Under the pieces are notes generated by a model. The model saw only the letters and a list, made by a program, of their open reading frames with translations. It ran no database searches and was not told the DNA's origin. Shown here in pieces: positions 1,118 to 39,669 of a DNA stretch of 45,612 bases (positions are counted from its first letter, which is position 1; the number at the start of each line of letters is the position of its first letter). Source of the DNA: Candidatus Aenigmatarchaeota archaeon (GTDB lineage: Archaea; Aenigmatarchaeota; Aenigmatarchaeia; CG10238-14; SCSR01); assembly GCA_038998625.1 (NCBI GenBank), contig JAWADS010000003.1, forward strand, positions 1 through 45,612. The letters are read 5' to 3'. A program made the translations under genes and the position numbers.

Positions 1118-1164
1118 TTTATATAGATTACGGACCACCAATGGTGGTTCTAAATCTATATAAA
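1118..1164. promoter_or_regulatory. 47-bp palindrome copy A (divergent TATA boxes around ACCAC-N5-GTGGT)
   Basis: TTTATATAGATTACGGACCAC CAATG GTGGTTCTAAATCTATATAAA lies between divergent genes. The right TATATAAA ends 22 nt before ATG 1187. Confidence 0.8.
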
Positions 1165-1186
1165 CCCCCTTTTTCAAAACTTTTTT

Positions 1187-1606
1187 ATGTTAAATTTAGT
1201 TCCAACCCTTTATGATACGAAGATTTTTCCTGATCCTCGAGTTTCTGAAATTATTGAAGAATCAAAGAAAAAAGTTGCAGAATATTTCAAAATACCAAAG
1301 TATTTGCTTGATGGTGTTAAATTTAAGATATCCAAATTACCAGAATTTTATCAAATCGGAATGAAATTTGTTGATGGTTATTTGGTAAAATATATAAAGA
1401 AGGTGGGGAAAGTTCTAGGTTTATTTTTTCCTTATAAAAATGAAATCTACTTAGATTATGAAAATTTATACGATGAAAAACTTTTGAAAAGAACTATAAT
1501 TCATGAACTTGTTCACAAGGCGCAAGAAGTTTTTGGAAGGATTTATAGCTTGCCAAGATATTTAATTGAAAAAGAAGCATATGAAGTTACAAATAAATTG
1601 GCTTAA
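1187..1606 (+). CDS. Small HEXXH zinc-metallopeptidase-like protein
   Basis: TIIHELVHKAQ motif with a downstream EKEA helix (gluzincin-like third ligand) and upstream GLF...EIYLD strands. Confidence 0.7.
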   Translation: MLNLVPTLYDTKIFPDPRVSEIIEESKKKVAEYFKIPKYLLDGVKFKISKLPEFYQIGMKFVDGYLVKYIKKVGKVLGLFFPYKNEIYLDYENLYDEKLLKRTIIHELVHKAQEVFGRIYSLPRYLIEKEAYEVTNKLA

Positions 1607-2073
1607 TGTTTTATTTTATCACAAAAAATTTTGACTTGCATTTCAGGCATTTTCAACTTATGTTCTTGAACTTTATTTTCATCGTAAATATGAATAACTT
1701 TATAACCAAGCGCAGTTAATGCTTCTGCAATATATCTGCGATGGCAACGAAAGAACAAAAGCTCTGCACAAGTAATTACAACATTTTTATAATCAATTAT
1801 TTCCATCAATTTTTTTATAGCATCTGCAAACTCAGAAGTTTTTGTAAATGCTTCATATCCTTCTTTTCTAAATCCTCCAAGTTCTGGATAATGTAAATAA
1901 TCAATCTTATTTCTCCTTAATTCTATTTCTAAATTCTCCTTGTTAAACCACGGAAATTTTTTACTAGAAGGAAATTTTCTTACATCAATCAATAAATCTA
2001 TTTTGAAATGTTTCAAAATTTTAAGGAATTCTCCAAAGCTTCTAGTGGAGTGACCAATCGTAAAAATTTTCAT
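1603..2073 (-). CDS. DUF488 family protein
   Basis: MKIFTIGHSTR, LIDVRKFPSS, ELGGFR and CAE...RCHRR motifs. Start moved to the ATG at 2073. Confidence 0.9.
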   Translation of the reverse strand: MKIFTIGHSTRSFGEFLKILKHFKIDLLIDVRKFPSSKKFPWFNKENLEIELRRNKIDYLHYPELGGFRKEGYEAFTKTSEFADAIKKLMEIIDYKNVVITCAELLFFRCHRRYIAEALTALGYKVIHIYDENKVQEHKLKMPEMQVKIFCDKIKH

Positions 2074-2077
2074 AAAT

Positions 2078-3235
2078 TTATTTCTTTCCTTCCTCACTAA
2101 TTTCTTTATCTTTCAAAACTTTAGCTAAGTCATGAATCAATTTTCTTACATATTCTCTCATTTCATAAACTTCCTTATCAGAAATCTCATGGATTTTTTT
2201 CTCATCTGACTTTTTCTTTAATTCTTCTACCCTCTTCCATACATCCCAATAATAAGGTTCAATTATCTTTTTATCAATAAATTCTTGTTTAAAGGTTACT
2301 GGAATTTCTTCTTGCTTAGGATTTTTATTTAAACTCTTCAAAGCTGTTAATGCTGCTTTATACATAACTTCATGCGTCCTCTCCAAAATTTTCTCCCTTT
2401 TTCTTATTTCTAAAGCATTTAGCAGGGCGAACATTTTATCCACAAATTTTTCAGCCCTATCTAACCATTCATCCACAAATTGTCCTGATGCATCCATCAA
2501 TTCTTTATGTTCAATTTTTTTCCTAATTTCAATTATTTCCCTTAGCCATTCAGCATATTGTGGTTCCAAAATTCCTGGTTCCACTAAAAATTTTTTCACT
2601 TCTTCATAAGCTTTACTTGGAACTGGTGGTGATAAACCCATGAACATTAAAACAGCTTGGGCAGAATTCAGAATAGCATAATAAACATCTTCTGCTAACA
2701 TTAACAATTTTACAGTTTTTGCCCTCATAATTTTCTTTGGTGCCCCTTCCATGTAATTTTCTATAGCTTCCCTTGTGGTTGGAATTCTACCCATTTCTAA
2801 AAGTTTTTTAATTGGAGCAAAGAATCCAGTATCATAAAGGGGCAAACCTTCTTTAATGAAATTGTATATTATAGGATGAGCTACTCTTGCGTAATCCCAA
2901 AATTCAGTTAGAGTATAGCTAGGCTGTACAGAAATTTTTTCAGAAATCTCCTTTGCTATCTTTTCCATTTCTTCATCTAGTTTGTCCAAAAATTCTGGTG
3001 TGACTTCGTTAAACTGAGTGTCATCAACAATAACAAAAATATCTATGTCACTAGTTGGTTTAAATTCTTCTCTTACTACAGAGCCCATCATTACTATGGC
3101 TTTTATATATTTTCCATATTTTTCTAAAATTTTCTTGGAGAATTCTTCAGCTTTTTTTAAAATTTCTTCTTTTGTTTCTTGCCTCTTCTCATTTTTTGTT
3201 TTTTCAGTCTTTTCTTCTTTGTTCATATAAACCAA
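2078..3235 (-). CDS. Nucleotidyltransferase-HEPN fusion protein (385 aa)
   Basis: Pol-beta type GS...DIDIFVIVDD motif, followed by a helical HEPN-like domain with an intact Rx4H (RKKIEH) and an extra C-terminal helical domain. Confidence 0.85.
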   Translation of the reverse strand: MVYMNKEEKTEKTKNEKRQETKEEILKKAEEFSKKILEKYGKYIKAIVMMGSVVREEFKPTSDIDIFVIVDDTQFNEVTPEFLDKLDEEMEKIAKEISEKISVQPSYTLTEFWDYARVAHPIIYNFIKEGLPLYDTGFFAPIKKLLEMGRIPTTREAIENYMEGAPKKIMRAKTVKLLMLAEDVYYAILNSAQAVLMFMGLSPPVPSKAYEEVKKFLVEPGILEPQYAEWLREIIEIRKKIEHKELMDASGQFVDEWLDRAEKFVDKMFALLNALEIRKREKILERTHEVMYKAALTALKSLNKNPKQEEIPVTFKQEFIDKKIIEPYYWDVWKRVEELKKKSDEKKIHEISDKEVYEMREYVRKLIHDLAKVLKDKEISEEGKK

Positions 3236-3279
3236 TAATAACTTTGCCTATTTAAACATAAGCATATCAACACAAATTA

Positions 3280-4134
3280 TTACTCCTCTATTTCACTCAG
3301 TTCTTCTCCCAAAACTTCTTTAGGAATTAATTTTTTAAACCTCTCTACAATTTTTTCTGTTAGTTGAAGGGTTTTCTCTAAATACTCCCCTCTAACATCT
3401 TTTACTATTTTATGATCAATATCTTTCCATAGCTTATCCAACTCTTTAAATTTCTCTATATATTCCTCTTCCAGCTTATTTTCTTTCACTAATCTTTCCA
3501 AAAATTTGGGTATATCTTTTGGATCAGGTTGAGCTTTGTAGTGAAACATAACGGCAGATTGAATCATATCTATCGCAGTATAGCGCAAATCAAAAACAAT
3601 TGCTTTTAAATCTAACTTTATTTTTTTGAGTCGGGCTTCACTAGCCTTTGCTTTTAAAGAAATGGTTTCTTCGCTGGGCGGAATTAAACCCATTTGAAGC
3701 ATTCTTTGAATAGGCTTAATGAAACCTGTATCGTAAATTGCTAAACCATATCTCAAAAAGTTAACTAATTCAGGCGAACCATGCCTTATCCATTCCCAGA
3801 ATTTTGTGAGGGCATGAACTTGGATATGTAAATCTTTTAGTTCATGGGCCATTAAATAAAGATGGGAAATAATTTTTTCAAAATCCTCTGTTGATTTAGT
3901 AGCAGTATCATCAAGGATAACAAAAGCATCCACATCACTCCCCTTTGTCATAGTTCCTTTAACAGCAGAGCCAAAAATCACAACCGATTTTACAATATCT
4001 CCATATTGTTTTCTAGCATCATTGGTAAACTTTACTACTTTGGCTATAACATCACTAGGCACTTTTATTTCTTCTTTTTCTTTTTTAGCTAATTTCACAT
4101 CCTCCAACTCTTTTTCTAAATTCTCAATATCCAT
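3280..4134 (-). CDS. Nucleotidyltransferase-HEPN-like protein, paralogue of neighbour
   Basis: FGSAVKG...SDVDAFVILDD motif. Shares LTxFW and YDTGFxxPI with the upstream-coordinate paralogue. WKDIDH stands in place of Rx4H. Confidence 0.85.
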   Translation of the reverse strand: MDIENLEKELEDVKLAKKEKEEIKVPSDVIAKVVKFTNDARKQYGDIVKSVVIFGSAVKGTMTKGSDVDAFVILDDTATKSTEDFEKIISHLYLMAHELKDLHIQVHALTKFWEWIRHGSPELVNFLRYGLAIYDTGFIKPIQRMLQMGLIPPSEETISLKAKASEARLKKIKLDLKAIVFDLRYTAIDMIQSAVMFHYKAQPDPKDIPKFLERLVKENKLEEEYIEKFKELDKLWKDIDHKIVKDVRGEYLEKTLQLTEKIVERFKKLIPKEVLGEELSEIEE

Positions 4135-4179
4135 ATTACACCTTTACACAATAAACCGATTTAAATTTAAAGTCTGTTG

Positions 4180-6198
4180 TTATCTAAATCTTTCCTTTCT
4201 CCATTCTTCAACTTTTCCTTTTTCTACAACAGCCCTACCCAAAAATCCATGTTCTTCTTCGGGCACTATAATTAAACCTTTTAACGGATCTAAGGCATGC
4301 TCTCTAATAACAACAATCTGCCTTTCCATGGATGCCACCTGACCAATATCTATACCAAAAAACTTTTTAAATTCTTCTGGTTTGTTTAGAATATCTTCAG
4401 GTTTTATATTTTTTTCCAAGAATTCAACGATTATTTTCAAGGCTGTTATACTTTGTCTTACTTCTTGAGGTGACCCCCTTTCGAAAATTATGTAGACTTC
4501 TTTTCCTTTACCCATACCTTTTTGTTGTAATTTAAAGTAAATTTTATATAAATACCACATTGCTTCAGTTCCTAAAGGAATATGAATGTGGGCAGGCATG
4601 AGAACAGAAGGATAACCGGAATGAATTATCCTTACAAATTTACCAGCATCTTCTGGCATTAAATCTACAACTATATCAGGATCTATATTGGAAGAAAGCA
4701 AATGCTCAAGATCAATAGCGATACCCATGATTTTTCCTTCAGGATCAATTTCCTTTATCAAATAGTACATTTGTAAAGGATTAGGCAGCCTTGACCATTC
4801 TGCTATTAAAGGTGAGCTCATGGGCGTCTCCAAAGCGAAAAATATTTTCCCTTTTGCATCTTCCAAAACTTTTTTTAAATCATATCTTTTATGAATAGTG
4901 TCATCAGGACACTTAGACTGCATAAAGTGCCCCCAAATATATTTTGCTGAAACAGCGGGGACCCAAAGCCTAAAATCTAGTTGGAACTGTTCATCATCTA
5001 TGGAAAATCTTTCTATTCTATGTTCTTTTTTCCAATCTTCAACAGTATAATCTTTTTTATTCTTTCTTTTTTTCTCGAACTCAACAAGATATTTTACATT
5101 AATATCAACAATATTTTTCCAAAGGGGGTCATTTGTTAATTCCATATATTTAGCGATTATGTAGTAAGCTATTCTTTCGGAGCCATAGGCTAAGTTTACA
5201 CTTTCAATTGCTTCTTTAAATCTAGTTATCCATCTTTCTTCCACAATCTGCTTTAAAGTTAGATATTCTTTCTTTTCTTTTTCATCTAATTCTGCTGGAT
5301 TCAATTCTTTTCTTTTAACAGCCTCAGCTTTTTCTAACTTTTCTTTTAATCTCTTATAAATTTCCCTTCTTTCCCTTCTTTCCTTTAAAGATATTTCTGT
5401 TGTTAATATACTTTGTTGAAAATATCCCATTTCCCTTTCTAATTTAAGTTTTTCTTCTTCAGGTAATTGTATTTTTTTTTCAATTATTTGCATTAATTTT
5501 TCTTTTCTTTCTTCCAACTCTATTTTCAATCTATTTAATTCATCTTCCATATGGGGAATTTCTATTTCAAGGGACCTAATAGTTTCATTAACATTATCCT
5601 TTATCGCTTCGAATAAAGAAGGTAGATGTAAGATTTCCATTATATTTTTTTGTCTAACGGCCCATTGGAGTAAAGGGATATCATTTCCTAATTCATCCTT
5701 TGCAAAAATTTTTTTGATTTTTGTTTCTTCCAAAAAATAAGTTAAAGGTCTACCCCAAAAATCCACAAGCTGCAAAGGCTCCAATTGTCTCGAGGCTAAG
5801 AGGAAAGAATAAGATTCTGAAGAATGAACGAGCATGTATTTAGCCCCCAATTTTATACAGTTTTCCAAAATGTAATAATGTCTTTCATGGGAAAACCTAT
5901 ACTTATCAGCAATGCTTTCATCTAAATATGGCAGTTCAATTTCCCCAAAAGCTTTGGCTTCACTATGTATACCAAAATTTATTCCAAGCTTTTCTATAGC
6001 TTCCTTTACTTTTTTTTCTAAATGTGGTTCGTTGAATTCAGCTATTGATTCTAAATCTACCTGTGCAAACCTTACACCTTGCATCAAAGGAAAGCCAGAA
6101 ATTTTTCTAGCAATTCCAATATATTGTAGTCCGCCTTCTCCTTCTTGTCCTCTAGCTATGCCCCAAAGACCTGAAGAAATGCCTACAATATAGGGCAT
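4180..6198 (-). CDS. Endonuclease IV / xylose-isomerase-like TIM-barrel metalloprotein with large coiled-coil insertion
   Basis: Ordered metal-ligand motifs GIHSE, LVHSS, ALETP, IDLEH, IIHSG, AHIHIPLG and IFERG, with a long E/K/R-rich helical insert between LVHSS and ALETP. Confidence 0.7.
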   Translation of the reverse strand: MPYIVGISSGLWGIARGQEGEGGLQYIGIARKISGFPLMQGVRFAQVDLESIAEFNEPHLEKKVKEAIEKLGINFGIHSEAKAFGEIELPYLDESIADKYRFSHERHYYILENCIKLGAKYMLVHSSESYSFLLASRQLEPLQLVDFWGRPLTYFLEETKIKKIFAKDELGNDIPLLQWAVRQKNIMEILHLPSLFEAIKDNVNETIRSLEIEIPHMEDELNRLKIELEERKEKLMQIIEKKIQLPEEEKLKLEREMGYFQQSILTTEISLKERRERREIYKRLKEKLEKAEAVKRKELNPAELDEKEKKEYLTLKQIVEERWITRFKEAIESVNLAYGSERIAYYIIAKYMELTNDPLWKNIVDINVKYLVEFEKKRKNKKDYTVEDWKKEHRIERFSIDDEQFQLDFRLWVPAVSAKYIWGHFMQSKCPDDTIHKRYDLKKVLEDAKGKIFFALETPMSSPLIAEWSRLPNPLQMYYLIKEIDPEGKIMGIAIDLEHLLSSNIDPDIVVDLMPEDAGKFVRIIHSGYPSVLMPAHIHIPLGTEAMWYLYKIYFKLQQKGMGKGKEVYIIFERGSPQEVRQSITALKIIVEFLEKNIKPEDILNKPEEFKKFFGIDIGQVASMERQIVVIREHALDPLKGLIIVPEEEHGFLGRAVVEKGKVEEWRKERFR

Positions 6199-24816: not shown

Positions 24817-24984
24817 TCATTTTTCTTCTGCATAGACAATAGCATCTCTATTAATTATTCTTTTCTTCCCTCTACTTTCTAAAACAATCCATTGGTTGGC
24901 ATCTTTTAAAGTTCCTTCTAAAGAAATAGAAGTATCACCAAGCATTACAATTAGCTTTACTTTTTTTCCAATTAACTCCTTCAT
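24817..24984 (-). CDS. 55-aa Sm/LSm-like microprotein, absent from ORF track
   Basis: Manual translation: MKELIGKKVKLIVMLGDTSISLEGTLKDANQWIVLESRGKKRIINRDAIVYAEEK. ATGA overlap with the lhr stop; ends 1 nt before the MPE ATG. Confidence 0.75.
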   Translation of the reverse strand: MKELIGKKVKLIVMLGDTSISLEGTLKDANQWIVLESRGKKRIINRDAIVYAEEK

Positions 24985-27900
24985 TCTCCTACCCTTTCCA
25001 AAACTTTTTTATGCAACTCTAATAATATTTTTTTCCTATCTTCCATTAAAACTACATCAGATTCCCCTAAAGCTATTAAAGAATGGGAAAAAGGACTAGG
25101 CAAATCACACTCTTCCAAAAATTCAAGTTTAATTTTTCCTTCTTCAATTTCTTTCAAAATTTCTTTAGCATGCTCTATATCCATATAATCTTGTAAGATT
25201 TCACGATATGTTTCTTTTAATACAGGAAAACCTTCAATTTTTTCACAAACTTTTATTAGTCTATCAGCATTCATTTGTTGTTTGGTAACTCTTATTTCAT
25301 ATCCTTTATAATTCCTTAAAACCATTAAAGCTCTTGTTGCGGAGTGCCTAAATTTTCTTCTTAAAAGCTCTGTTTGCCTCAAGGCTTTTTTCAAAATTTC
25401 TTCTAAATTTTCTGAATTAACTAGCTTAACAACTTCCTTTGGATCAATTCTTTTTGGCTTCAATTCCTTTATCTTTTTAATAAAAAGCCATTTGTTTTCT
25501 AAGGCTTCATTGGGTAAAGAAAGCATAAAGCCATTATCGCTAATAGTTACAGCTATAGACTTTCCAATTTTTTTAATTAAAGCATAAGCAAAGGCCCTAG
25601 ATAGAGCATCATTTACACGCCTTCCATATAAAGTGTGGAAAATTAAGTTTTGATTTCCTCTTTCATCAATATAATTTTCCACTAAAATTCTCTCATGGGA
25701 AGGAAAGCCTTTTGCCCCCATTTCTTCTAAAAATCTTTTCTGATAGTAGAAATAATCCACTATAGCTTTAGCAGCCCATTCAGTAACAGGATACTCCTTT
25801 AACAACCAATTCACAATTTCTTTTTTAGATTTTTTGTTTATCAATTCAAACATTTTTTCTCTAAATTTCCCAATTTCTATGGCCAATTCAAAACTTAATG
25901 GTAATTGTTCCGAAAACCAGCTGGGCACCGTAGGTCTTTTTTCTTTTACTGGTAAAACAAATGCTTGGGCTTGCTTAGCTTTAACAAATTGATAGGTTTT
26001 TCCTGCTAAAACAAAAATATCTCCCGGCACAAGCCTCTGTAGAAATTCTTCCTCTATACTTCCAATATATTTTCCATCCAAACTTTTTACTTTAATTTTT
26101 ACTTCGTCAGGAATTGTGCCAATGTTTAATGAATAAATAACCCTAGCATATTTTCCTCTCCTTCCAAAAACCATATCATTAAAGTCCACCCAAATTTTCC
26201 CGTAAACTTTTTTATCTTCTAAAGTGTGATAAGCTCCAGAAAGATATTCAAGAACAGAAACAAAATCCTTCCACTCTAAATTGCGATAACAATAAGATCT
26301 TCTAATTAAATTAAAAGCTTCTTTTATGTTCCACTTCTTTTCCAAACTCATTCCCATTATATGTTGAGCTAAAACATCTAAGCAATTTTGAGGAATTTGT
26401 ATTTTATCTAAAAAATATTCATAAGCCTTCTTAGCCATAACTGTTGTTTCTACAAGATCATCATGGTCTAGACATATTACCCTGCCTATAGAGGTTTCAT
26501 GTAACTTATGCCCAGCCCTGCCAATCCTTTGCATTAGACGCGAAATACTTTTTGGGCTCCCTAGTTGCACTACTAAATCAATATAACCAATGTCTATGCC
26601 AAGTTCAAGACTTGTGCTGGAGTTTTGAGTTATAATTCCGTTGACAATATAATTATGAAATTTATAAACATCGACAAGATCATAAATTTCGTGCAATTTT
26701 ATTTTTTCAATTTTCTTTATCTTTTCCCAAAAAACATGCCCTTTTATTAATTTTTTTAAATATTCCGTTTCTTCAGTTTTTCCAAATTTTTCAAAAAAAT
26801 TCAAAACCCTAAATAAAGTTTTTCTGTTGAAATAGTGCTGATCCTTTTCATAGCTCTCTAAATCAATTCCAACTTCTTTCTTAAAATTCCAGCTTTTTAT
26901 TTTTAATTTTTTTCTTATATTCAATAAAATTTTACCTATTTGAGGAATTCTATCTATTGATATACTTTTAGTTTTAATTATTCCTTTCAACTCCTGACAA
27001 TTATCTCTAAAAAATCTTATTTCCTTAACAAATTTAGTGATATATTCTCCACTAATAATAGAAACTTTTCCTCTTCGAATGGAAGACACGATACCAATTT
27101 TTAGAAGAAGTCTATTCAAGCCATATGCTAATGATTTGCTGGTAGCATTAAAGTCTATTGACGATAAATTCCCATTTTTTATTACTAAATTGCCATTACC
27201 ATCAAAATAACCAGCTAAAAATTCAACTATGTAATTTTTAGGTAGGGAGAAAATAAATTTAGGTATAAAAGTTTTTCTTGTTTCTTCACCTTCTGGGGTG
27301 CAAAGATTTTTTATTAAAGATGCAAAAAGGGATGAATACCGAAATCCTATAATTTCCCCAGATTTTTTCATAAACTCTTTATCTATCCCAAATTCTTTTT
27401 TAATTATTGAACTATATTTTTTTATCAAATACAGATTTTTATTTAAAACGATCACTTTACTATGGTATATATTGCCTCTAGCAAGAAAGAAGCCTAAAAA
27501 TCGTAAAAATGATGGACTCAATATAGGAGACGATAATTTTAATTTTTTCTTATTTGTACCTATATTACTCAATTTTAACAAATAATTTTCATTTCCTAAA
27601 TCTCTACAAATTTTTTTGAAAACAAAAATCTTCAACCAACAGCGATTATTAAAAAAATTATATAGCAAATTCCTATTAAGATTTAAACACCTTGCAGCAT
27701 TAGTTATGGTGCCATATTTTTTTAATAATTTTTTCTTTAAATCTGTTAAAATTTCTCTAGTTGGCTTGACAAAACAATTTTCATTCGTCAAGTATTCTAT
27801 ATAATAAGGAATTTTAAAATTATGGTTATTTGGTATACATCGTATGGTTGCTATAAACTCGCCCTTTTTGAGATCTTGGGCCTTTTTCCATTTTAATATT

Positions 27901-29174
27901 CCATCACTAATTGTCAAAAGTTTATGTTCTTCGCTACACTTTATTTCCTTTCCGAGATCAGTTTTAATATATAACCCATTTAGAATTGAATTCCTTTTAT
28001 TTATTGAACTAAAATAAGTCTTCTGTAAATTCAGGTGTTGAGGGTTCAAAGAAAAAATTTCTGCATCATTATTTAATTTTGATATTTTTTCCCATTTGCC
28101 ATCACTAAGTAAAATTTCTGAATCTTTATCCACACACACTATTGTTTTTAATAGTCCTTTCTTCAGTCTCTCTTCCAAATCTAGTCTTATTTCCCTCGCA
28201 ACACTGCTGTGATGCGCTCCTATTTGATCTTCAGTATAGGTTTCAGGAAAAGTTTGTTTTAAATGATGCACAACCCTCTCAGTTCCACTTCTTGTATTAG
28301 TGAAGACTAAAGTTGTTCTGTGTTGGTTTATTAATTTGTGCAAAAGATTATACATTTCACTTGTAATTTTTTCTGCCGGTGTGTAAACAATATCTTTTAC
28401 CGGAGATAAAACTTTTATATCCATATGTTTCACAAATCTTGCGTCAACTATAGTGCAATCTCTTTCTTTTCCATTCTCATAACCAACCAAGAATTTTGCA
28501 ACAGCCTCAAGAGGTGAGAGTGTAGCTCCTAGTCCTATTCTTACTAAGCTCTTGCCAACAAAATCTTGCAACCTTTCTAGGCTTAAGCTTAAATGTGCAC
28601 CACGCTTAGAATTTGCAAGCTCATGAATTTCATCGACAACAACCCATTTAACATTCTTAAATTTTTCCCTAAATTTTCTTGTACTCAAAACTACAGCAAT
28701 AGTTTCGGGTGTAGTTACTAAAATGTGTGGAGGTTTTTTCAATTGCTTTTGTTTTTCGTTTGGTGGCGTATCTCCAGTTCTAACAGCAATTCTAACTTCT
28801 GGTAGCACAATTTTCATTTCTTTCGCGATTTCCCTTATTTCCTTAAGCGGGACTAATAAGTTTCTGTAGATGTCATTATCTAATGCTTTAAGTGGAGAAA
28901 TGTAAACACAATAAACCATATCTTCAAGCTTTCCTTTTTCTGCTAAGGTAAACAAATAATCAAGGATAGATAGAAAAGAGGCCAAAGTCTTTCCAGAACC
29001 AGTGGGAGCAGTTATCAAAGTATTTTTTCCTTTGTGAATTAATTCTACAGCAAATTTTTGATGTAAAAGTAATTCTTTAAAATTTCTTTTAAACCATTCC
29101 CTAACATAAGGCCTAAGTAAAGCTAAAACTTTTTCATCTTTTTTTGGTTTTTTTATGTTAACATAGCGAATCAT
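24981..29174 (-). CDS. lhr: Lhr-type SF2 ATP-dependent helicase containing an intein
   Basis: APTGSGKT, ISPLKAL, TTPE, VDEIHE, HHSS, STSLELGIDIG and QRIGRAGH motifs. Confidence 0.96.
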   Translation of the reverse strand: MIRYVNIKKPKKDEKVLALLRPYVREWFKRNFKELLLHQKFAVELIHKGKNTLITAPTGSGKTLASFLSILDYLFTLAEKGKLEDMVYCVYISPLKALDNDIYRNLLVPLKEIREIAKEMKIVLPEVRIAVRTGDTPPNEKQKQLKKPPHILVTTPETIAVVLSTRKFREKFKNVKWVVVDEIHELANSKRGAHLSLSLERLQDFVGKSLVRIGLGATLSPLEAVAKFLVGYENGKERDCTIVDARFVKHMDIKVLSPVKDIVYTPAEKITSEMYNLLHKLINQHRTTLVFTNTRSGTERVVHHLKQTFPETYTEDQIGAHHSSVAREIRLDLEERLKKGLLKTIVCVDKDSEILLSDGKWEKISKLNNDAEIFSLNPQHLNLQKTYFSSINKRNSILNGLYIKTDLGKEIKCSEEHKLLTISDGILKWKKAQDLKKGEFIATIRCIPNNHNFKIPYYIEYLTNENCFVKPTREILTDLKKKLLKKYGTITNAARCLNLNRNLLYNFFNNRCWLKIFVFKKICRDLGNENYLLKLSNIGTNKKKLKLSSPILSPSFLRFLGFFLARGNIYHSKVIVLNKNLYLIKKYSSIIKKEFGIDKEFMKKSGEIIGFRYSSLFASLIKNLCTPEGEETRKTFIPKFIFSLPKNYIVEFLAGYFDGNGNLVIKNGNLSSIDFNATSKSLAYGLNRLLLKIGIVSSIRRGKVSIISGEYITKFVKEIRFFRDNCQELKGIIKTKSISIDRIPQIGKILLNIRKKLKIKSWNFKKEVGIDLESYEKDQHYFNRKTLFRVLNFFEKFGKTEETEYLKKLIKGHVFWEKIKKIEKIKLHEIYDLVDVYKFHNYIVNGIITQNSSTSLELGIDIGYIDLVVQLGSPKSISRLMQRIGRAGHKLHETSIGRVICLDHDDLVETTVMAKKAYEYFLDKIQIPQNCLDVLAQHIMGMSLEKKWNIKEAFNLIRRSYCYRNLEWKDFVSVLEYLSGAYHTLEDKKVYGKIWVDFNDMVFGRRGKYARVIYSLNIGTIPDEVKIKVKSLDGKYIGSIEEEFLQRLVPGDIFVLAGKTYQFVKAKQAQAFVLPVKEKRPTVPSWFSEQLPLSFELAIEIGKFREKMFELINKKSKKEIVNWLLKEYPVTEWAAKAIVDYFYYQKRFLEEMGAKGFPSHERILVENYIDERGNQNLIFHTLYGRRVNDALSRAFAYALIKKIGKSIAVTISDNGFMLSLPNEALENKWLFIKKIKELKPKRIDPKEVVKLVNSENLEEILKKALRQTELLRRKFRHSATRALMVLRNYKGYEIRVTKQQMNADRLIKVCEKIEGFPVLKETYREILQDYMDIEHAKEILKEIEEGKIKLEFLEECDLPSPFSHSLIALGESDVVLMEDRKKILLELHKKVLERVGE
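26622..28136 (-). mobile_element. Intein (505 aa) with LAGLIDADG-type endonuclease domain
   Basis: KTIV|CVDKDSEILL...SEEHKL...IYDL...HNYIVNGIITQN|SSTSLELG. Removal restores helicase motif V. Confidence 0.93.
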
Positions 29175-32738: not shown

Positions 32739-32843
32739 CGCCAGGGCTGGGATTTGAACCCAGACGTGCTCGAAAGCACACCAGCTTGCCATCTTATATT
32801 AAGACTCAAGGCTGGCCCGATTACCTGATTCCGGCACCCTGGC
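32739..32843 (-). tRNA. tRNA-Ser(TGA) with 18-nt intron (about 32787-32804)
   Basis: GCCAGGG/CCCTGGC acceptor stem, G73, CCAGC-CTTGAG[intron]A-GCTGG anticodon arm, long variable arm and GGTTCAAATCC T-loop. Confidence 0.92.
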
Positions 32844-32929
32844 TTATCTTCATCATCTTAAAAAATCAGACCTTGAGTCTTCTTATTAAAATTTATTTAT
32901 TACTTAACTTTAACTCTTTTTCAGTTTAA

Positions 32930-33229
32930 TTATTCTTCTGGCTCATGCAAAACTTGAATTTTCCCTGTTCTTGGTACATTGAGCTGTAACTTATCTTTAA
33001 AACTTGTGGCAAAGGCCCCAGAAATTTTTACTGTATCTCCTATATCTACTTTATCTATATCTTTTTCCCATAAAGAAAGAGAAATTTGCCCTGTCGCATC
33101 TTCTAATAAAACATCCACAACACTTCTTCTTCCATATTTTGTGTTAACTTCTCTCACTTCAGACTTATCAATAACTTTAGCTTTTATTGTTATGTTACTC
33201 ATTCCAATTTTTATTTCTGATATGTTCAT
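32930..33229 (-). CDS. ssb: Single OB-fold ssDNA-binding protein (SSB/RPA-like)
   Basis: ISEIKIGM...KVIDKSEVREV...LEDATGQISLSLW...GDTVKI...LQLNVPRTGKI. Confidence 0.88.
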   Translation of the reverse strand: MNISEIKIGMSNITIKAKVIDKSEVREVNTKYGRRSVVDVLLEDATGQISLSLWEKDIDKVDIGDTVKISGAFATSFKDKLQLNVPRTGKIQVLHEPEE

Positions 33230-33271
33230 TTTAACTTACTTAATGCTTTTTGGATTTTATTTATTTAAATT

Positions 33272-33356
33272 TTTTTATTGGCTCGCTCCACTGAGCGGTC
33301 CACCTCGCGCAAGATATTAAACAAAGAATATAGGCGCGAGGTCCTTCTTTGTAAAA
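33272..33356 (-). ncRNA. 85-bp GC-rich structured element, copy 1 (candidate ncRNA/cis element)
   Basis: 82/85 identical to the reverse complement of 39713-39797. Interleaved 8-bp and 9-bp stems plus a small hairpin. Strand is inferred. Confidence 0.55.
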
Positions 33357-33393
33357 AATTGTAAAGCAAAAAAAATCAGCAAAAATTTCCCCC

Positions 33394-33440
33394 TTTATAT
33401 AGATTTAGAACCACCACGAGTGGTTCTAAATCTTTAAATA
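33394..33440. promoter_or_regulatory. 47-bp palindrome copy B
   Basis: TTTATATAGATTTAGAACCAC CACGA GTGGTTCTAAATCTTTAAATA. Confidence 0.8.
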
Positions 33441-33502
33441 TTAGTTCAAAAAAGTTTTAAATTTAAAATTTAACTTAATTCCCTCTACAATATATGAAAA
33501 AT

Positions 33503-33985
33503 TTATCTTATTACATCTGAAGTGGCTGCTCCGATAGAAGCAAAAAGAGAAACCAAAACAACTAGCTTAACTGCCCATATAACATCAGTTATTATATTGC
33601 CAATTATTCCTACTGTAAAAAGAACAGAAAAGCTGCAAACATAAGAAACTAAAATTACGGAAAAGACTCTTCTTTTAATTTGAAAGTTGAAGTATTTTTG
33701 ACGATAAATCAGGTAGCTCACTAAAAATGTCAGAAAGAACAATGCAAATGATCTGAAAATATCTAAAAGCTTAGCAATCTCCCAGACTTCCTGGGTAACT
33801 ATAAAGGGGGCTGACAAAATTAGGGCGCCAACAATTTGCTCCCCAATGTCGGAACGAGTAAAAGTTTTTGTAACAATCTTTTCTTTCAGCCTGTTGAAAT
33901 ATTCTTTTTCCCGTGATGTTAACTTTTTCAAATAGCTAATCCTACTTTCAGAAGGAATTTTCCACAGGCGTTTTTTCTTAAACAT
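33503..33985 (-). CDS. DUF2391-like integral membrane protein
   Basis: DIGEQIVGALILSAPFIVTQEVWEIA motif, four TM segments and an ASIGAATSD C-terminus. Confidence 0.78.
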   Translation of the reverse strand: MFKKKRLWKIPSESRISYLKKLTSREKEYFNRLKEKIVTKTFTRSDIGEQIVGALILSAPFIVTQEVWEIAKLLDIFRSFALFFLTFLVSYLIYRQKYFNFQIKRRVFSVILVSYVCSFSVLFTVGIIGNIITDVIWAVKLVVLVSLFASIGAATSDVIR

Positions 33986-34012
33986 TATAATAAAATTCTG
34001 TTTTTGCTTGTA

Positions 34013-34966
34013 TTATTTTTTTACAGAAGGATAAGTTCCTTTTTTCATGAAAACTCTATCAGTTCTTACGGCCAACCCCACTTTCTTTTCATACATCTCT
34101 TCACTCTTCATCTTTGCAATTCCTAAAGCAATCAATTCATTTTTCAAGCTCATTATTGCTATGGTTTCGCCTGCTAAAATATTCTTTTGAATCCTTGTGA
34201 TGCCATTAACATATACTGGGGCTCCGTTACAAATAGAATCTACAGCAGAATCTTTTACAAAAACTTTTTTCACATGATCTATAGCAAATTCTATAGGAAT
34301 TAAAATTTTTCTTAGTTCTTTTTCTTCTTTATTTTCCCTCCAAAATTCATAGGCATCTTTTATTTCGACCAGCGAATGAGCTTGATCTTCATGAAAATTC
34401 CCAACTATTATCCTTCTCAATTCAGTCATATGGGCGCCAACATTTAAAGATAGACCAAAATCGTGAACAAGCTTTCTTATGTAAGTTCCAGCCTCAGTGC
34501 CAACACGAAACAAAACATCTCTTCCGTTAACTTCTAAAATATCAAAAAATCTTACTTCCCTTTCTCTAATCTTTCTGGCCACAGCAGATTTTTTTGGGGG
34601 AATTTGCTTTATTCTTCCAATAAAATTTTTTATATTTTCTTTCAACAAATCTTCTGAAACATCTTTATGTAAATGCATTACTCCAACATATTCCTTATCC
34701 AAACCCATTAAAACAGGCATGGCTTTTACAGCTTCTCCTAAAGCCACAATCAAAACTCCGGTAACTTTTGGATCTAGAGTTCCAGCATGACCAACTTTTT
34801 TAACATTAAAAATTTCTTTTATCCATTGCGAGATTTGGTGCGAAGTTGGCCCAGAATGCTTATCCACAACTATAACAGAAGAATTAATTAATTCCTCTAT
34901 ATTTCTTTTTTCTGGTTCTTTTCCGTAGTCAGGATTTGTTTCCTCTTCTTCTCTAATTAGCCACAT
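34013..34966 (-). CDS. cbf5: H/ACA pseudouridine synthase Cbf5 (TruB family)
   Basis: DKHSGPTSHQ, GHAGTLDPKVTGVL, EAGTYIRKL and a PUA domain. Confidence 0.97.
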   Translation of the reverse strand: MWLIREEEETNPDYGKEPEKRNIEELINSSVIVVDKHSGPTSHQISQWIKEIFNVKKVGHAGTLDPKVTGVLIVALGEAVKAMPVLMGLDKEYVGVMHLHKDVSEDLLKENIKNFIGRIKQIPPKKSAVARKIREREVRFFDILEVNGRDVLFRVGTEAGTYIRKLVHDFGLSLNVGAHMTELRRIIVGNFHEDQAHSLVEIKDAYEFWRENKEEKELRKILIPIEFAIDHVKKVFVKDSAVDSICNGAPVYVNGITRIQKNILAGETIAIMSLKNELIALGIAKMKSEEMYEKKVGLAVRTDRVFMKKGTYPSVKK

Positions 34967-35142
34967 ATAATTAGATTTAAAAATAATCTTTAGTAAAGTT
35001 TACTTTTGCTATGGCAATATTTTTTAATTTTTAACCAAAAAATAATTAACTTTAAATCTTTTTTCTTAAAATTGTGCTCTAATTTAAAAACTTTTCTGCG
35101 ATTAAAATAAAAAGTTTTCTATCAAATAAAAAATAGAGAAGA

Positions 35143-36117
35143 ATGAATAGGGCTTTAATTGGCTTGCTTTTGAGTTTAGTTGGATTAGCCTCTGCTTTGA
35201 TTATTGCTAATACAACAATTTCTCAGCAACAAATATACAAAGCCATGAACATGAGCTTTGATATGGATACAAAAATTGAAGTTTATCCTGGAGAAACAAA
35301 AACTATAGAGGGAAGATTATTAAACACAGGATGGTTATGGCTTTATAATGTCACGATAAAAGCAGAGAATCTTACTTATGAGCATACAATAACTCCAAAT
35401 AATATTCCAGTCTTGCCGATAAAATATTATTGGGTTGATGGAAGAGCCTTTAGAACTCCTCAAAACTTTAGCATAACCATAAAAATCCCTGAAAATCTAA
35501 CAGCAGGAGAGAAGGAATTCTTTTTAACAGCTAACGGAAGTTTTAGAATTTACTTACCTATGGATATGAAGTATTTACATTATCCTATGCAAATAAAGCA
35601 AAGAGTTGTGCTTAAAGTAGTTCCAACACCTTCAATAGAGATAAAAGATATAACTTTTCCCGAAGTTGTTATAGCAAATAAAACTTTTGAGATTTCAATG
35701 CTTGTTATAAACAATGGAGATATAGGCACTACTGCTAACATTTCCATAGATTTACCAAAAGATTGGCAAGTTGATTCAAAAACAAAAAGTATAAGAATTG
35801 AGGCTAGAGAAAATAAAACCCTTAATTTTAGCGTGACGCCTAGCAATAGTAGTGGGCAAGTTTCCCTCTATCTTTTATATCCAGTAAGGCAAAAGATAAT
35901 TAATATCACTAAAACTGGACCTTTCTTGGTGCCTCAATTAGAAGAAGTTGTAGAAAAGCCAGTGCCAGGATTAATAGAAAGAATTGTATCGTTTATAAAA
36001 TCTCTCCCACCCATCTTACTTTTGATAATAGTTATTTTATCAGCTGTAATAATTTGGAATTTGGCTGGTGTCATAAGATTTTATAGAAGAAGAAAGAAAC
36101 CTGAAAAACCTGGATAA
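35143..36117 (+). CDS. Membrane-anchored surface protein with Ig-like (CARDB/NEW3-like) domains
   Basis: Signal peptide, LLNTG and INNGD strands, DLPKDWQV, many sequons, and a C-terminal TM followed by RRRKK. Confidence 0.82.
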   Translation: MNRALIGLLLSLVGLASALIIANTTISQQQIYKAMNMSFDMDTKIEVYPGETKTIEGRLLNTGWLWLYNVTIKAENLTYEHTITPNNIPVLPIKYYWVDGRAFRTPQNFSITIKIPENLTAGEKEFFLTANGSFRIYLPMDMKYLHYPMQIKQRVVLKVVPTPSIEIKDITFPEVVIANKTFEISMLVINNGDIGTTANISIDLPKDWQVDSKTKSIRIEARENKTLNFSVTPSNSSGQVSLYLLYPVRQKIINITKTGPFLVPQLEEVVEKPVPGLIERIVSFIKSLPPILLLIIVILSAVIIWNLAGVIRFYRRRKKPEKPG

Positions 36118-36134
36118 ATTTTATTAATTTTTTA

Positions 36135-36536
36135 TTATTTTTTATTTCTCTTTTGAGTTTTCTTCTCATCCTTTTTAGATTTTTCTTCTTCAATTTTCTT
36201 CTCTTCCTTTTTTACCAAAAATTCTTTAAGTTGAGCTGCAGAGGGTTTCTTCAAACCAAATTTTTTAATTAAGTTTGCCTTTTCATAAGCAGAAATTACT
36301 TCCTCATCACTAGCATCTTCTTTTATATCTAAAACATATTCTAAAGGCTCCAAGTGCATTATGTTACATCTTTTCCTTCTAACTCCTGTCAAAATTTTTG
36401 GGCCTGTTATTAAAACAAAGCTTCCTGATTTCCCTTTTTCTTTAGGAAAATTCTTTATTACTACACAAAGCTTACCTGCCTCACTACCGGCAATTTTCCT
36501 GCAAACTCTTCCTATTTCAAGGGTCAAGGTCATCAC
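36135..36536 (-). CDS. rpl14e: 50S ribosomal protein L14e
   Basis: EIGRVCRKIAGSEAGKLCVV and TGVRRKRCNIMHLEP motifs. Confidence 0.95.
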   Translation of the reverse strand: MMTLTLEIGRVCRKIAGSEAGKLCVVIKNFPKEKGKSGSFVLITGPKILTGVRRKRCNIMHLEPLEYVLDIKEDASDEEVISAYEKANLIKKFGLKKPSAAQLKEFLVKKEEKKIEEEKSKKDEKKTQKRNKK

Positions 36537-36606
36537 TTTACAATTTTGTAATAAATTATAAATTAATTTTAATTATTTATTTTAAACTTTTTTGCCAAGA
36601 AAAAAT

Positions 36607-37083
36607 TTAACTTAATAACTTATTTAGGACCCATCCTATGGCCAGAGAAATAAAAACATACCAATAAACCCAATTTAAGGAAGAACCTATATAAGGCAAA
36701 TTAAAGGGCAGAGCTACAACATAACCAATTTTTTCATATTTAAAATGAAGCCATGGAAAGATTAGAGAAATAACTATAAGAGAAACAAACAATGTTTTAA
36801 TACTGTGTTTCATGAATTGGGTATTTATTTTCATCATCTCATTCAAAAATTTTTCCACTTCACCTTTATTTCCTGCTTGCTGAGCCTTTGTTAAGTTTTC
36901 CCTAATTTCTTCCATCTTATACTTTAGCTCTTTTAGAATATTTTTTCTAAAAATTATTTTATTTAAAGTCAGAATGAGGGAAGTAAGAATTATTGATACT
37001 AAAGTTATGGCTAAATAAGGGGGCAAAGTAGTTATAGGCCCAAGGATTATATCTACAGCAGCTATGATTTGCTGGAAAACCAT
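36607..37083 (-). CDS. EMC3/TMCO1 (DUF106) Oxa1-superfamily membrane insertase
   Basis: TM-coiled coil-TM-TM layout, WVYWY motif and position after secY. Confidence 0.88.
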   Translation of the reverse strand: MVFQQIIAAVDIILGPITTLPPYLAITLVSIILTSLILTLNKIIFRKNILKELKYKMEEIRENLTKAQQAGNKGEVEKFLNEMMKINTQFMKHSIKTLFVSLIVISLIFPWLHFKYEKIGYVVALPFNLPYIGSSLNWVYWYVFISLAIGWVLNKLLS

Positions 37084-37084
37084 T

Positions 37085-38548
37085 TTATCCTCCTAAAATT
37101 TTCCTGATGATTGGATGAGCCTCTTCCAATTTTTGATTTGAAAGTTCTTCATAATAATTATAAATAATCATAACAGTTAAAAGAATTCCTGTGCCTGTGC
37201 CTATGACATCTAAAATATCGGCTGAAGCAGCCAAAAGGCCAACAAGCAAACCGCCTAAAACTGCCAATGGCGGAATATACCTGTTTAAAACAGATTCTAT
37301 AATTCTTGGATCTCTTCTATAACCAGGAATTTGCATTCCTACACTAGATAATTGCTCTGCCACGCTTTTTGCATCCATACCAGCAGTATTAACCCAAAAA
37401 ACAGAAAACATAGTTGCTAAGGCTGTAAGTATGATTAAATAGATTATAGCACGAAGAATTTCAGTTGGCACTAAATTTTGATTTATTATATTGATCAAAA
37501 GGGTTCTTGGGGCAGAAAGATAATAAGCCATACCACTTGTAGGATTTCCTTGCTGATCATAACATCCTAAAGGCCCACATAAAAGGCCAAATTCATTAGG
37601 CTGCAATCCAAACCTTCCCATTAGTTGAATATTAGCAATCATGGCAGCAGCGAGAATAACAGGAATGTTGCTAGTATATAATAATTTCAAGGACCATGTC
37701 CTTCCAAAACCTTTTAGAGCTGCAAAGGCCAAAGGTATATTTATTTTTATGTGCTGGGCGTAAATAACGATGATGAAAATAATTGCTGTGGTAACGATGG
37801 GAAGAAAACTAACTGAAAAGGATGGAAGATCTCCAGCAAAAAGGCTAATAAGGCTAACCCATAAACGACCTGCAGGCGGATTCGTTGTAGAAGGAATGCA
37901 AGATGCTAAATCTAAAGGCTGACAGGTAGTAGCAAATGGAGAAAATATTCCTATAAAAATTTGTGTTGCTACTCCTGCTGCTATAAATAAACTAATTCCG
38001 GAGCCAAATCCCCATTTTGTTACCAAATCATCTAAAAAAATTACAATTATTCCACCTAAAGCTAATTGAAATATTACAAATGCTAAAATTCCTGGTCCTC
38101 CTGTAACTTGTATGGCCCCGGCTAAAACAAAAGCTATGGCTTCTAGGAAAGCAAAAATTATGGCTAATCCTTTATTCCAGCTCTGAAATTTTTTTCTATA
38201 TTCTGGCTTAGTAGTGTCCCATTTTAGGATTTTAGAACCTACAAGCAATTGTAATATAATACCAGCAGTAACTATAGGACCTATTCCTAAAGTCATTAAA
38301 CTACCAAATTTAGATCCCAATACAATTTCAAAAAATCTAAATTGTTGATAGGTCGCAGGAGCTACGCCATAAACAGTTATGTACGATAAAACTATGTAGA
38401 TGATTAAAGCTATACCAGTCCATTTCATCCTAGTGTTAAAACTTTGTCTGTAAGTAGGTTTTTCTACTGAAGGAAACCATCGAGAAATAGAGGAAATTAT
38501 ATCAAATTTTTTCTTTTGAGCTTCTTCCAAATTTTCTTCGCTATTCAA
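37085..38548 (-). CDS. secY: Preprotein translocase subunit SecY
   Basis: SLMTLGIGPIVTAG, GSGISLFIA, YTSNIPVIL, QIPGYRRD and GTGILLTV motifs. Confidence 0.98.
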   Translation of the reverse strand: MNSEENLEEAQKKKFDIISSISRWFPSVEKPTYRQSFNTRMKWTGIALIIYIVLSYITVYGVAPATYQQFRFFEIVLGSKFGSLMTLGIGPIVTAGIILQLLVGSKILKWDTTKPEYRKKFQSWNKGLAIIFAFLEAIAFVLAGAIQVTGGPGILAFVIFQLALGGIIVIFLDDLVTKWGFGSGISLFIAAGVATQIFIGIFSPFATTCQPLDLASCIPSTTNPPAGRLWVSLISLFAGDLPSFSVSFLPIVTTAIIFIIVIYAQHIKINIPLAFAALKGFGRTWSLKLLYTSNIPVILAAAMIANIQLMGRFGLQPNEFGLLCGPLGCYDQQGNPTSGMAYYLSAPRTLLINIINQNLVPTEILRAIIYLIILTALATMFSVFWVNTAGMDAKSVAEQLSSVGMQIPGYRRDPRIIESVLNRYIPPLAVLGGLLVGLLAASADILDVIGTGTGILLTVMIIYNYYEELSNQKLEEAHPIIRKILGG

Positions 38549-38952
38549 ACTTTCACCGCCCTACCACCAGCTTGCTCTATTTTCTTTATGGCAGATTTAG
38601 AAAAATACTTTGCCTTAATTGTCAAAGCTTGAGTTAGCTTGCCTTTGCCTAAAACTTTTTCATATCCCAATTGAGATAAATCAATTTCTTTTAATTTTTC
38701 TTTTTCAGCCAACTTATCAATTTCCTCTAGATTTATTATAGCTGCTTTCTTAGAAACTTCTTTAGGCTTCTTAAAACCTTCTTTACCAAAATGTTCCGGC
38801 TCATATTTTACTGTATAGCTCCATTTATGTTTGTGCATTCCAGCCTTGCCCCTACCTCCTCTACTCCCACCACCACGCCATTTTTTGTGAGAACCATGGT
38901 AAGTTCTATGACCCCTTCTCCACTTTCTTTTACTATGTCTCTTAACCACCAT
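38545..38952 (-). CDS. rpl15: 50S ribosomal protein L15
   Basis: RGGGSRGGRGKAG, KVLGKG and AIKKIEQAGG motifs. Confidence 0.97.
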   Translation of the reverse strand: MVVKRHSKRKWRRGHRTYHGSHKKWRGGGSRGGRGKAGMHKHKWSYTVKYEPEHFGKEGFKKPKEVSKKAAIINLEEIDKLAEKEKLKEIDLSQLGYEKVLGKGKLTQALTIKAKYFSKSAIKKIEQAGGRAVKV

Positions 38953-38957
38953 TTAAA

Positions 38958-39425
38958 TCACATCATCCTCTCTATCAACTCATTTATTTCTTTCCCCCTA
39001 TAACCCAAATCTCCTTTCGGATAATATTCTTTTATTGATTTAAATCCTTTTGAAGGTGGAGTTAACCTAAAAAAAGGTTGTAATTCTTCAAAATCTTTTA
39101 ACTTTATTCTGCCTGCAAGAATTTCTTCAGCAAAATTTTCAAATTTGTCAAAATCTGTAACTTCTTTTAAAATTTTTTCATCTACTCTACTTCCATTTTT
39201 TAATCTTAATCTTTTTTTCAATAATTTCACTAAAGTTTCTTTATCAATTTCCCCCCATGTAACATAATCTTTTACTTTTTCTATCATGCCTTTTATACTA
39301 GGAGAATTTTCCCATAAAGAGCAATGGTTAGCAGAGTTCAACCTAAGCATTTTCAATGTATCATTAACTTCTTTTTTTATCCCCACGCCACCTCTAATCC
39401 TAATCACAGCTAGCATAAATATCAT
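38958..39425 (-). CDS. rpl30: 50S ribosomal protein L30
   Basis: AVIRIRG, KDYVTWGEI, FRLTPP and GDLGYRG motifs. The real start may be ATG 39416. Confidence 0.96.
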   Translation of the reverse strand: MIFMLAVIRIRGGVGIKKEVNDTLKMLRLNSANHCSLWENSPSIKGMIEKVKDYVTWGEIDKETLVKLLKKRLRLKNGSRVDEKILKEVTDFDKFENFAEEILAGRIKLKDFEELQPFFRLTPPSKGFKSIKEYYPKGDLGYRGKEINELIERMM

Positions 39426-39479
39426 TATTATTCATAAAAATTATAAAAAAATTTGATTTTTGATGTTAATTTTTCCTGT

Positions 39480-39526
39480 CTTTTCAAAATTTACTACCAC
39501 TTTTAGGAGTTCTAAATCTATATAAA
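39480..39526. promoter_or_regulatory. 47-bp palindrome copy C (degenerate left arm)
   Basis: ...ACTACCAC TTTTA GGAGTTCTAAATCTATATAAA. Confidence 0.7.
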
Positions 39527-39550
39527 TTTTTCTATTTTTTCCTAGTTTTA

Positions 39551-39597
39551 TTTATAAAGATTTTGTACCACTTTTAGGAGTTCCAACTCCTAAGAGT
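39551..39597. promoter_or_regulatory. 47-bp palindrome copy D (degenerate right arm)
   Basis: TTTATAAAGATTTTGTACCAC TTTTA GGAGTTC... Shares the 18-mer TACCACTTTTAGGAGTTC with copy C. Confidence 0.65.
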
Positions 39598-39622
39598 TGT
39601 ATTTCCAATGCTTTTTAAAGCC

Positions 39623-39669
39623 TTTATATAGATTGCGAACCACTAATGGTGGTTCTAAATCTATATAAA
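39623..39669. promoter_or_regulatory. 47-bp palindrome copy E
   Basis: TTTATATAGATTGCGAACCAC TAATG GTGGTTCTAAATCTATATAAA. Confidence 0.8.

Follow-up and report, generated by a model that had tools for sequence, protein, structure and literature searches.

A 47-bp palindrome, probably carrying the operator of a TrmB-family regulator, is dispersed by repeats in a small archaeal genome

What is the 47-bp palindrome that recurs on contig JAWADS010000003.1 of a Candidatus Aenigmatarchaeota archaeon (assembly GCA_038998625.1)? The window is this entire 45.6-kb contig (45,612 nt), C3 of the source genome G000; labels of the type C1-C19 denote the contigs of that genome, whose assembly comprises 469 kb in 19 contigs at 31-32% G+C and is 92% complete. 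The genes of the window are archaeal in type (transcription factor B (TFB), GatE, the L30 and S5 ribosomal proteins, and an intein-containing Lhr helicase), and the stretch 32800-40800 was matched by eight sequencing runs, all of DNA and labelled hot springs metagenome. A preliminary description of the window had proposed a portable bidirectional promoter module driven by one dimeric regulator and defining a regulon, or, alternatively, a dispersed hairpin resembling repetitive extragenic palindromic (REP) sequences. In this study, we followed the element through the assembly and a comparative set of 41 genomes (G000 and 40 relatives), in which same-family and other-family genomes were counted separately. 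Sequence comparison suggests that the palindrome is probably a TrmB-type operator-promoter cassette, based on the operator of the resident trmB regulator and amplified by repeats.

The palindromes reported at 1118, 33394 and 39623, and the degenerate copies at 39480 and 39551, were all located as described. The full copies are as follows.

1118..1164: copy A, solitary 47-bp palindrome with its ACCAC-N5-GTGGT core at 1134-1148 and TATA-like octamers facing outward at 1118-1125 and 1157-1164
33394..33440: copy B palindrome; core at 33410-33424; right arm ends in TTTAAATA; within the minus-strand half composite 33272-33440
39623..39669: copy C (unit 3 of a composite repeat), full palindrome; core at 39639-39653

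The centre of each of the 47-mers at 1118-1164, 33394-33440 and 39623-39669 is 5 nt, and on the open reading frame (ORF) map all window copies are intergenic, both as previously claimed. Arm complementarity, read from the sequence, is 18/21 in copy A, 18/21 in copy B and 19/21 in copy C. The copies at 39480 and 39551 are half-decayed, with a single good arm apiece (ACCAC-N5-GGAGT). A repeat search united 1118, 33394, 39480 and 39623 in one 47-nt family at 100/81/68/94% identity and tied 39552 to 39481. When up to two mismatches were allowed, GAACCAC-N5-GTGGTTC gave three matches in the window against 0.01 expected, and none of 100 shuffles reached three.

A genome-wide scan with a listing of flanking genes, which had been put forward as a check, extended this picture. 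It added full copies at C1:67852 and C5:19491, giving five in the assembly, and core-only sites at C4:8088 and C6:2763. Exact ACCAC-N5-GTGGT cores number seven in the assembly, versus zero for the reversed version of the core that served as the control in exact-site counts. All seven are non-coding on the ORF map, while the non-coding share of the assembly is 9.8%. Only copy A of the five full copies is solo; the other four lie inside a composite repeat. In collection-wide scans of genome and metagenome contigs, which may omit records of the window's own genome, the long arm-plus-core pattern was found in no metagenome contig and in one genome contig (a metagenome-assembled genome of Anaerolineales, approximately the chance level for 21 fixed bases).

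The site at C4:8088 connects the core with a regulator gene. This gene, and the ORF next to copy A, are given below.

C4:8141-8941 of G000: trmB, 266 aa, TrmB-family winged-helix protein; the core at C4:8088 lies between the elongation factor EF-2 gene and trmB
1187..1606, plus strand: 139-aa ORF with a HELVH (HExxH) motif; accessory gene predicted to be served by the right arm of copy A

The C4:8141-8941 protein matched Pfam TrmB (7.4e-23) and, in its C-terminal part, Regulator_TrmB (7.9e-05). It also matched the NCBIfam models TrmB (2e-19; 69.9 bits, cut-off 600) and TrmBL1 (5.9e-19; 68.2 bits, cut-off 650) and the TrmB structure PDB 3qph (1e-12), and its relatives bear the JGI name 'sugar-specific transcriptional regulator TrmB'. 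The C4:8088 core sits outside all composite and 79-nt repeats. In the trmB promoter, this core starts at -53 from the ATG and is followed by 8 nt and then by TATA-like TAAATAAA at -30. At copy A, the core likewise starts at -53 and the octamer TATATAAA (1157-1164) at -30 relative to ATG 1187, so that the geometry of the two sites is identical; the 30-nt distance is consistent with the earlier claim of a TATA-like box suitably spaced for this ATG. In archaeal core promoters, the A/T octamer is centred approximately 26-27 nt ahead of the transcription start. Among 242 upstream regions of G000, the hexamer TTTAAA peaks at -35 to -26 (50 of 173 occurrences). Therefore, the -30 octamer sits where TATA boxes tend to lie, if the mRNAs are leaderless or nearly so. 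A motif search for a promoter consensus returned a generic A/T-rich motif only, without a sharp position, and the regions upstream of 13 tRNAs found by aragorn were without a clear promoter consensus. The protein of ORF 1187 matched no Pfam or NCBIfam family above cut-off; a homologue was not found in any of the 24 same-family genomes and was found in four genomes of other families. We dropped its assignment as a winged-helix regulator from a weak RTP match (E 0.008, below cut-off); the protein has the HExxH motif.

We next compared trmB loci across the relatives. The orthologue set consists of 17 loci with 38-100% identity drawn from the 41 genomes, in which a relaxed site was defined by at most one mismatch and a spacer of 4-8. 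Such a site starts at -53 to -63 of trmB in 6 of the 17 loci (G000, its sister genome G001 of the same genus, G004, G019, G022 and G024), with the spacer departing from 5 in G022 (8) and G024 (4). Over 469 kb, the background count of relaxed sites, with the true ones among them, is 24, and approximately 0.01 would be expected in those windows. Conservation in related genomes, another check named at the outset, was thus found across genera. In four further genomes (G008, G010, G012 and G015), trmB follows same-strand genes, and the distance from the gene to an exact site upstream is 1.5-1.7 kb. This site stands 71-129 nt before a gene for a small glycine-rich membrane protein, homologous among these genomes, that heads the gene run ending in trmB; the site heads an apparent operon in all four. 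Glycine-rich membrane proteins of 96-136 aa lie 3' of the operator at loci L048, L051, L058, L061 and L074 (G007, G008, G012, G010 and G015, respectively), and a blastp search of G000 at 1e-5 returned no homologue. A one-mismatch site is present at -1289 of trmB in G029, and the trmB loci of G011, G018 and G020 show, by eye, related yet different palindromes.

The exact core occurs 31 times in 13 of the 41 genomes, versus 7 times for the reversed control; it is carried by 12 of the 24 same-family genomes and by none of the 16 from other families. Each of the nine relatives in which a site is intergenic possesses a trmB orthologue. Sites without an orthologue were found only in G005, G013 and G016; those of G005 and G016 are inside a long ORF, and the one of two G013 sites that was examined abuts and overlaps ORFs. 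Among 23 exact sites examined in relatives, 3 are within long ORFs, and for 10 the site edge is 32-49 nt away from a gene start. The flank GTGGT-(T/G)-CTAAA recurs at independent promoter-placed sites of G019, which belongs to another genus, and this suggests that the arm of the palindrome may carry real promoter sequence. One of these ten sites, in G019 (locus L053), has gene starts on both sides, so one site serving divergent genes does occur naturally in the family. In the promoter of a 132-aa gene of G000 (C2:35830-35890), a decayed site resembling unit 1 of the composite repeat is followed by TCTAAATC and by TATATAC at -31, and in the G019 orthologue a perfect site precedes the start by 39 nt. 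This promoter may be a conserved target whose site decayed in G000. The presence of a TrmB-family gene with the site in its own promoter, and the site's travelling with the orthologues across genera, are consistent with the earlier proposal that the core is the operator of a dimeric regulator.

These comparisons also bear on whether another protein might bind the core. Two other winged helix-turn-helix (wHTH) genes, wHTH-301 and wHTH-170, adjoin sites in G000 and G001, G000 encodes a second TrmB paralogue (C9:12881-13672), and autoregulation of trmB is itself an inference. However, the paralogue's type was matched at approximately 25-30% identity in most of the 40 relatives, including those of other families without an exact site. 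The wHTH-301 gene occurs in 36 of the 40 relatives, among them all 16 other-family genomes, none of which has an exact site, and wHTH-170 was not found in the site-bearing genomes G004, G012, G015, G019 and G022; thus, neither gene adjoining sites tracks the motif. As the site also keeps a fixed position before the orthologues of the C4 gene (group-1 trmB) across genera, we regard an operator of the paralogue or of a neighbouring wHTH protein as very improbable.

Four of the five full palindromes are held by a composite repeat of 175-330 nt, in which three 71-72-nt units in register are joined to a 79-nt structured repeat. The features of the window that concern it are as follows.

39468..39797, plus strand: full composite repeat between the S5 and L30 genes
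39480..39550, plus strand: unit 1, decayed, ACCAC-N5-GGAGT at 39496-39510; left arm lost, right arm intact with TATATAAA; 24-nt spacer
39551..39622, plus strand: unit 2, left arm and ACCAC (39567-39571) intact; right arm replaced by a 12-bp hairpin at 39565-39602, then T5
39716..39794, plus strand: 79-nt repeat at the composite end; its CCAATAA end is 23 nt from the S5 stop codon
38958..39425, minus strand: ribosomal protein L30 gene (Pfam Ribosomal_L30, 2.6e-16), 392 nt from S5
39818..40603, minus strand: ribosomal protein S5 gene (Pfam Ribosomal_S5 N- and C-terminal domains)
33275..33353, minus strand: 79-nt repeat (20 copies in the assembly) separating copy B from the SSB-like gene
32930..33229, minus strand: 99-aa OB-fold gene resembling single-stranded-DNA-binding protein (SSB); Pfam Ssb-like_OB 4.2e-08; NCBIfam SSB 2.2e-23, below cut-off

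The ACCAC words of the three units start at 39496, 39567 and 39639. Tandem Repeats Finder left the 71-nt period uncalled, and the register is visible only by alignment. A variable T-rich spacer separates unit 3 from the 79-nt repeat. The composites C3:39468-39797, C1:67697-68003 and C5:19371-19694 are 90-91% alike over approximately 330 nt; C6:25224-25378 shares 97% identity and is truncated at the contig end, and C3:33272-33440 is a half composite. The S5 and L30 genes abut or overlap in all three relatives that keep the pair (G004, G017 and G010) versus a distance of 392 nt in G000, which indicates that the composite at this junction is an insertion. The description of the module as portable agrees with this insertion and with the placement of copies in a dispersed composite repeat. 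In G001, a different gene precedes L30. This sister genome has a unit-2-like sequence 43 nt before its wHTH-301 gene, without unit 3 or the 79-nt repeat, and the other exact site of G001 occupies a position syntenic with C6:2763. Therefore, the composite is in part as old as the genus. A decayed, internally deleted composite fragment between two same-strand genes at C5:24695-24728 shows that the composite family has old remnants as well. We also observed that the half composite 33272-33462 is in inverted orientation to the full composite 39601-39797, with complementarity of 96% over 85 nt and 73% over 91 nt. The pair brackets approximately 6.2 kb with L30, L15, SecY and other genes and would be a substrate for inversion; the present gene order looks uninverted. 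Contig C6 ends within composite unit 2, and C17:1-128 starts just before a repeat of the 79-nt type, so a sixth palindrome, absent from the assembly, may link the two contigs.

This anatomy raises the possibility of an inert repeat similar to REP sequences or miniature inverted-repeat transposable elements (MITEs), captured or derived from the trmB promoter, which would then be the sole working site; the palindromes of the composites, and perhaps copy A, would have no function. The insertion between genes that abut in G004, G017 and G010 fits such an origin, as do the position of the C5 composite between convergent genes, the end of contig C6 inside a composite, as expected of an unresolved repeat, and the association with a 79-nt repeat of 20 copies. 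Moreover, the copies are 90-97% identical, spacers included, a likeness that reflects recent copying and not selection on the site. Nevertheless, copy A repeats the -53/-30 geometry of trmB exactly, before an ORF start, and the GTGGT-(T/G)-CTAAA flank stands at independent promoter-placed sites in G019. Also weighing against an inert repeat are the unit-2-like sequence kept 43 nt before wHTH-301 in G001 and the synteny of C6:2763 with a G001 site, and seven high-affinity-looking sites in 0.47 Mb would titrate the regulator anyway. Inspection of the aligned ends of the four composite copies revealed neither terminal inverted repeats nor target duplications. Profiles for DDE, IS200/IS605 Y1 and OrfB transposases and tyrosine recombinases (PF01609, PF01797, PF01385 and PF00589) had no matches in the 92%-complete assembly. 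Among the features of a MITE, dispersed near-identical copies absent from the relatives' site were found; element ends and a cognate transposase were not. We consider inertness rather unlikely. The repeat-like alternative offered at first was correct in that the copies are spread in a larger repeat, but the core appears to behave as an operator besides. Two other candidates were dropped: the ends of an insertion sequence, as none of these four profiles matched in the assembly, and origin recognition box (ORB) repeats of a replication origin, as the dispersed copies are too many and none is beside an orc1/cdc6 gene.

An element acting at the RNA level was considered as well, in which transcribed hairpins would serve as small RNA genes, processing sites or terminators instead of protein-binding DNA. 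For the 47-mer, the folding energy is -28.8 kcal/mol (z -8.8). With -19.7 kcal/mol, the hairpin of unit 2 folds better on the plus strand (z -5.0) than on the minus strand (z -3.1), and a T5 run follows it. In addition, where the C5 copy and G001 differ from this hairpin by C-to-T changes, pairing is preserved only on the composite plus strand, as G.U, which hints that unit 2 may be transcribed in the composite plus direction, and the adjoining 79-nt repeat shows compensatory changes. In contrast, the arm mismatches of the palindrome (TAGA vs GCGA or ACGG) are uncompensated, and the relatives keep just the 5+5 core, too short for a stable RNA stem, in either orientation to the neighbouring genes. 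At the Rfam gathering threshold, tRNA-Gly was the only match in the window, and at E up to 10 the stretch 39430-39830 gave chance-grade matches only, far below the cut-offs. An RNA element is thus a very improbable explanation of the palindrome.

Several observations weigh against the operator-promoter cassette itself. In the scan of the assembly, a gene start at promoter distance was found for only two of the seven exact sites (copy A and the site before trmB), and this count does not support the proposed regulon of bidirectional promoters as stated. The other five face gene 3' ends or a start 150-230 nt away. The C5:19507 and C6:2763 sites lie between convergent gene ends; copy C has the S5 3' end on one flank and the L30 ATG 214 nt away on the other. 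At copy B and C1:67868, the next ATG is 150-180 nt off (that of the SSB-like gene is 165 nt past the left edge of copy B), and those genes have an A/T-rich stretch of their own past the 79-nt repeat. Outward promoters at copies B and C and at the C1, C5 and C6 copies would meet the 79-nt repeat, decayed units or gene 3' ends; small ORFs past the outward TATA boxes were dropped as candidates, their frames having only 8-10 codons. The octamers fit inward-facing boxes too, and the orientation of a TATA box is not readable from its sequence. All 10 wHTH-301 orthologues outside the genus were without an upstream site (one had a chance-grade match with two mismatches and a spacer of 4), and the longer core AACCAC-N5-GTGGTT had no exact match in the 40 relatives; most of the predicted regulon of G000 is not conserved. 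Finally, the relatives are kin, which makes the counts across genomes non-independent, and the near identity of the composite spacers has been noted above.

Taken together, the TrmB-type operator amplified by repeats remains the probable reading, and a mechanism can be proposed for it. The 15-bp ACCAC-N5-GTGGT would be the operator of a lineage-specific TrmB-family winged-helix dimer encoded by C4:8141-8941. We infer that this dimer binds the core, where it would lie upstream against the element that TFB recognizes (BRE) and the TATA box. Its most likely action would be that of an upstream site aiding recruitment of TATA-binding protein (TBP) or TFB, that is, activation; blocking of TFB is the second choice and nearly as likely, because the gap between the core and the TATA box is only 8 bp. 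The 47-bp palindrome may represent the operator with its promoter-side flank (TCTAAATC plus the TATA octamer) mirrored on either side. The 71-nt unit would have been triplicated in tandem, with subsequent decay of two units, and the array would then have been joined to the unrelated 79-nt repeat and copied to at least four places, including the S5/L30 junction. Copies that do not face a gene start may or may not be active under this mechanism. A stronger version, in which the symmetrical cassette was spread by a non-autonomous repeat through this 0.5-Mb DPANN genome and a TrmB-type factor now drives, or is titrated by, new divergent transcription units, is doubtful. If it were true, one new unit would split the S5-L30 operon and others would stand ahead of a regulator gene and the SSB-like gene, a natural case of prokaryotic regulon rewiring by repeat-borne transcription-factor sites.

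The 79-nt repeat is an element in its own right. This G+C-rich dispersed repeat of 79-118 nt, unrelated to the palindrome, has 20 copies in the assembly, 2 in the window and 18 on other contigs (L081-L098). Its two interleaved helices have pseudoknot topology. Compensatory changes were observed at three pairs in the C6 subfamily; pairing holds in 99.2% of cells, and the observed score was reached in 0 of 500 shuffles. Seven of the 20 copies contain an insert rich in GCGAA/GCGAG, which varies in length, and in 11 of 20 the distance to the stop codon of a convergent gene is 0-23 nt. Searches of the 40 relatives found no copy of the repeat, Rfam gave no match to it, and its core stretch occurred in no metagenome contig of the collection-wide scans. 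Elsewhere in the window, the Lhr-type helicase gene (24981-29174, minus strand, 1397 aa) is interrupted by an intein with a LAGLIDADG domain.

To our knowledge, transcription control in DPANN archaea is almost uncharted, and these archaea cannot yet be grown alone. A listing-level literature search found nothing on a TrmB binding motif in DPANN or on transcription-factor sites in archaeal MITEs. The present data provide a candidate regulator-operator pair in a DPANN archaeon, backed by cross-genus conservation and testable with one recombinant protein and a 47-bp oligonucleotide. They also reveal the same site multiplied by repeats within a genome of very small size. Active extra copies would show a reduced genome gaining promoters and rewiring even a ribosomal-protein operon; silent ones would offer a clean example of repeat-carried binding-site 'fossils'.

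The closest known site is the Thermococcales glycolytic motif (TGM), TATCAC-N5-GTGATA. In two reports, this motif is bound by TrmBL1 in Pyrococcus furiosus and by Tgr in Thermococcus kodakarensis, and sites upstream of BRE/TATA lead to activation and downstream sites to repression (PMC4706686, PMC4158304). The preliminary description, which had noted a shared CAC-N5-GTG geometry and activation from upstream, agrees with these reports. The same reports describe autoregulation as proposed for Tgr and listed for the TrmB family, present Ptr2 and TFB-RF1, whose upstream sites recruit TBP or TFB, as models of how TrmBL1 activates, and describe TFB occlusion by TrmB at the trehalose/maltose (TM) promoter (PMC4706686, PMC4158304). 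The element studied here is similar to TGM in the inner CAC-N5-GTG inverted repeat, whose half-sites are approximately one helical turn apart, and in a predicted regulator of the same Pfam family. It is not TGM itself, since the outer half-site bases are AAC or TAC here versus TAT in TGM. The neighbouring genes are not sugar-metabolism genes, and the sites are copied within a dispersed repeat, with all promoter-placed ones upstream of the TATA box. The G000 regulator is no orthologue of TrmBL1 or Tgr (68 bits against the TrmBL1 cut-off of 650); it resembles TrmBL2 in its length of 266 aa and in full-length alignment. With Ptr2 and TFB-RF1, the element shares a predicted dimer site directly upstream of BRE/TATA, but those proteins belong to other families, and the sign of regulation here may be activation or repression.

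Short non-autonomous, non-coding palindromic repeats that can carry regulatory signals to new intergenic loci include the Correia elements of Neisseria, enterobacterial REP sequences and bacterial interspersed mosaic elements (BIMEs), and archaeal MITEs. The composite resembles them in being palindromic, multi-copy, intergenic and inserted relative to related genomes. It differs in having only 5-7 copies, in that terminal repeats, target duplications and a gene of the four transposase or recombinase families searched were not found in G000, and in that the core of its palindrome matches the predicted operator of a resident regulator. The element would work as a TrmB-family operator, as predicted from its sequence, yet behave also as a small dispersed repeat.

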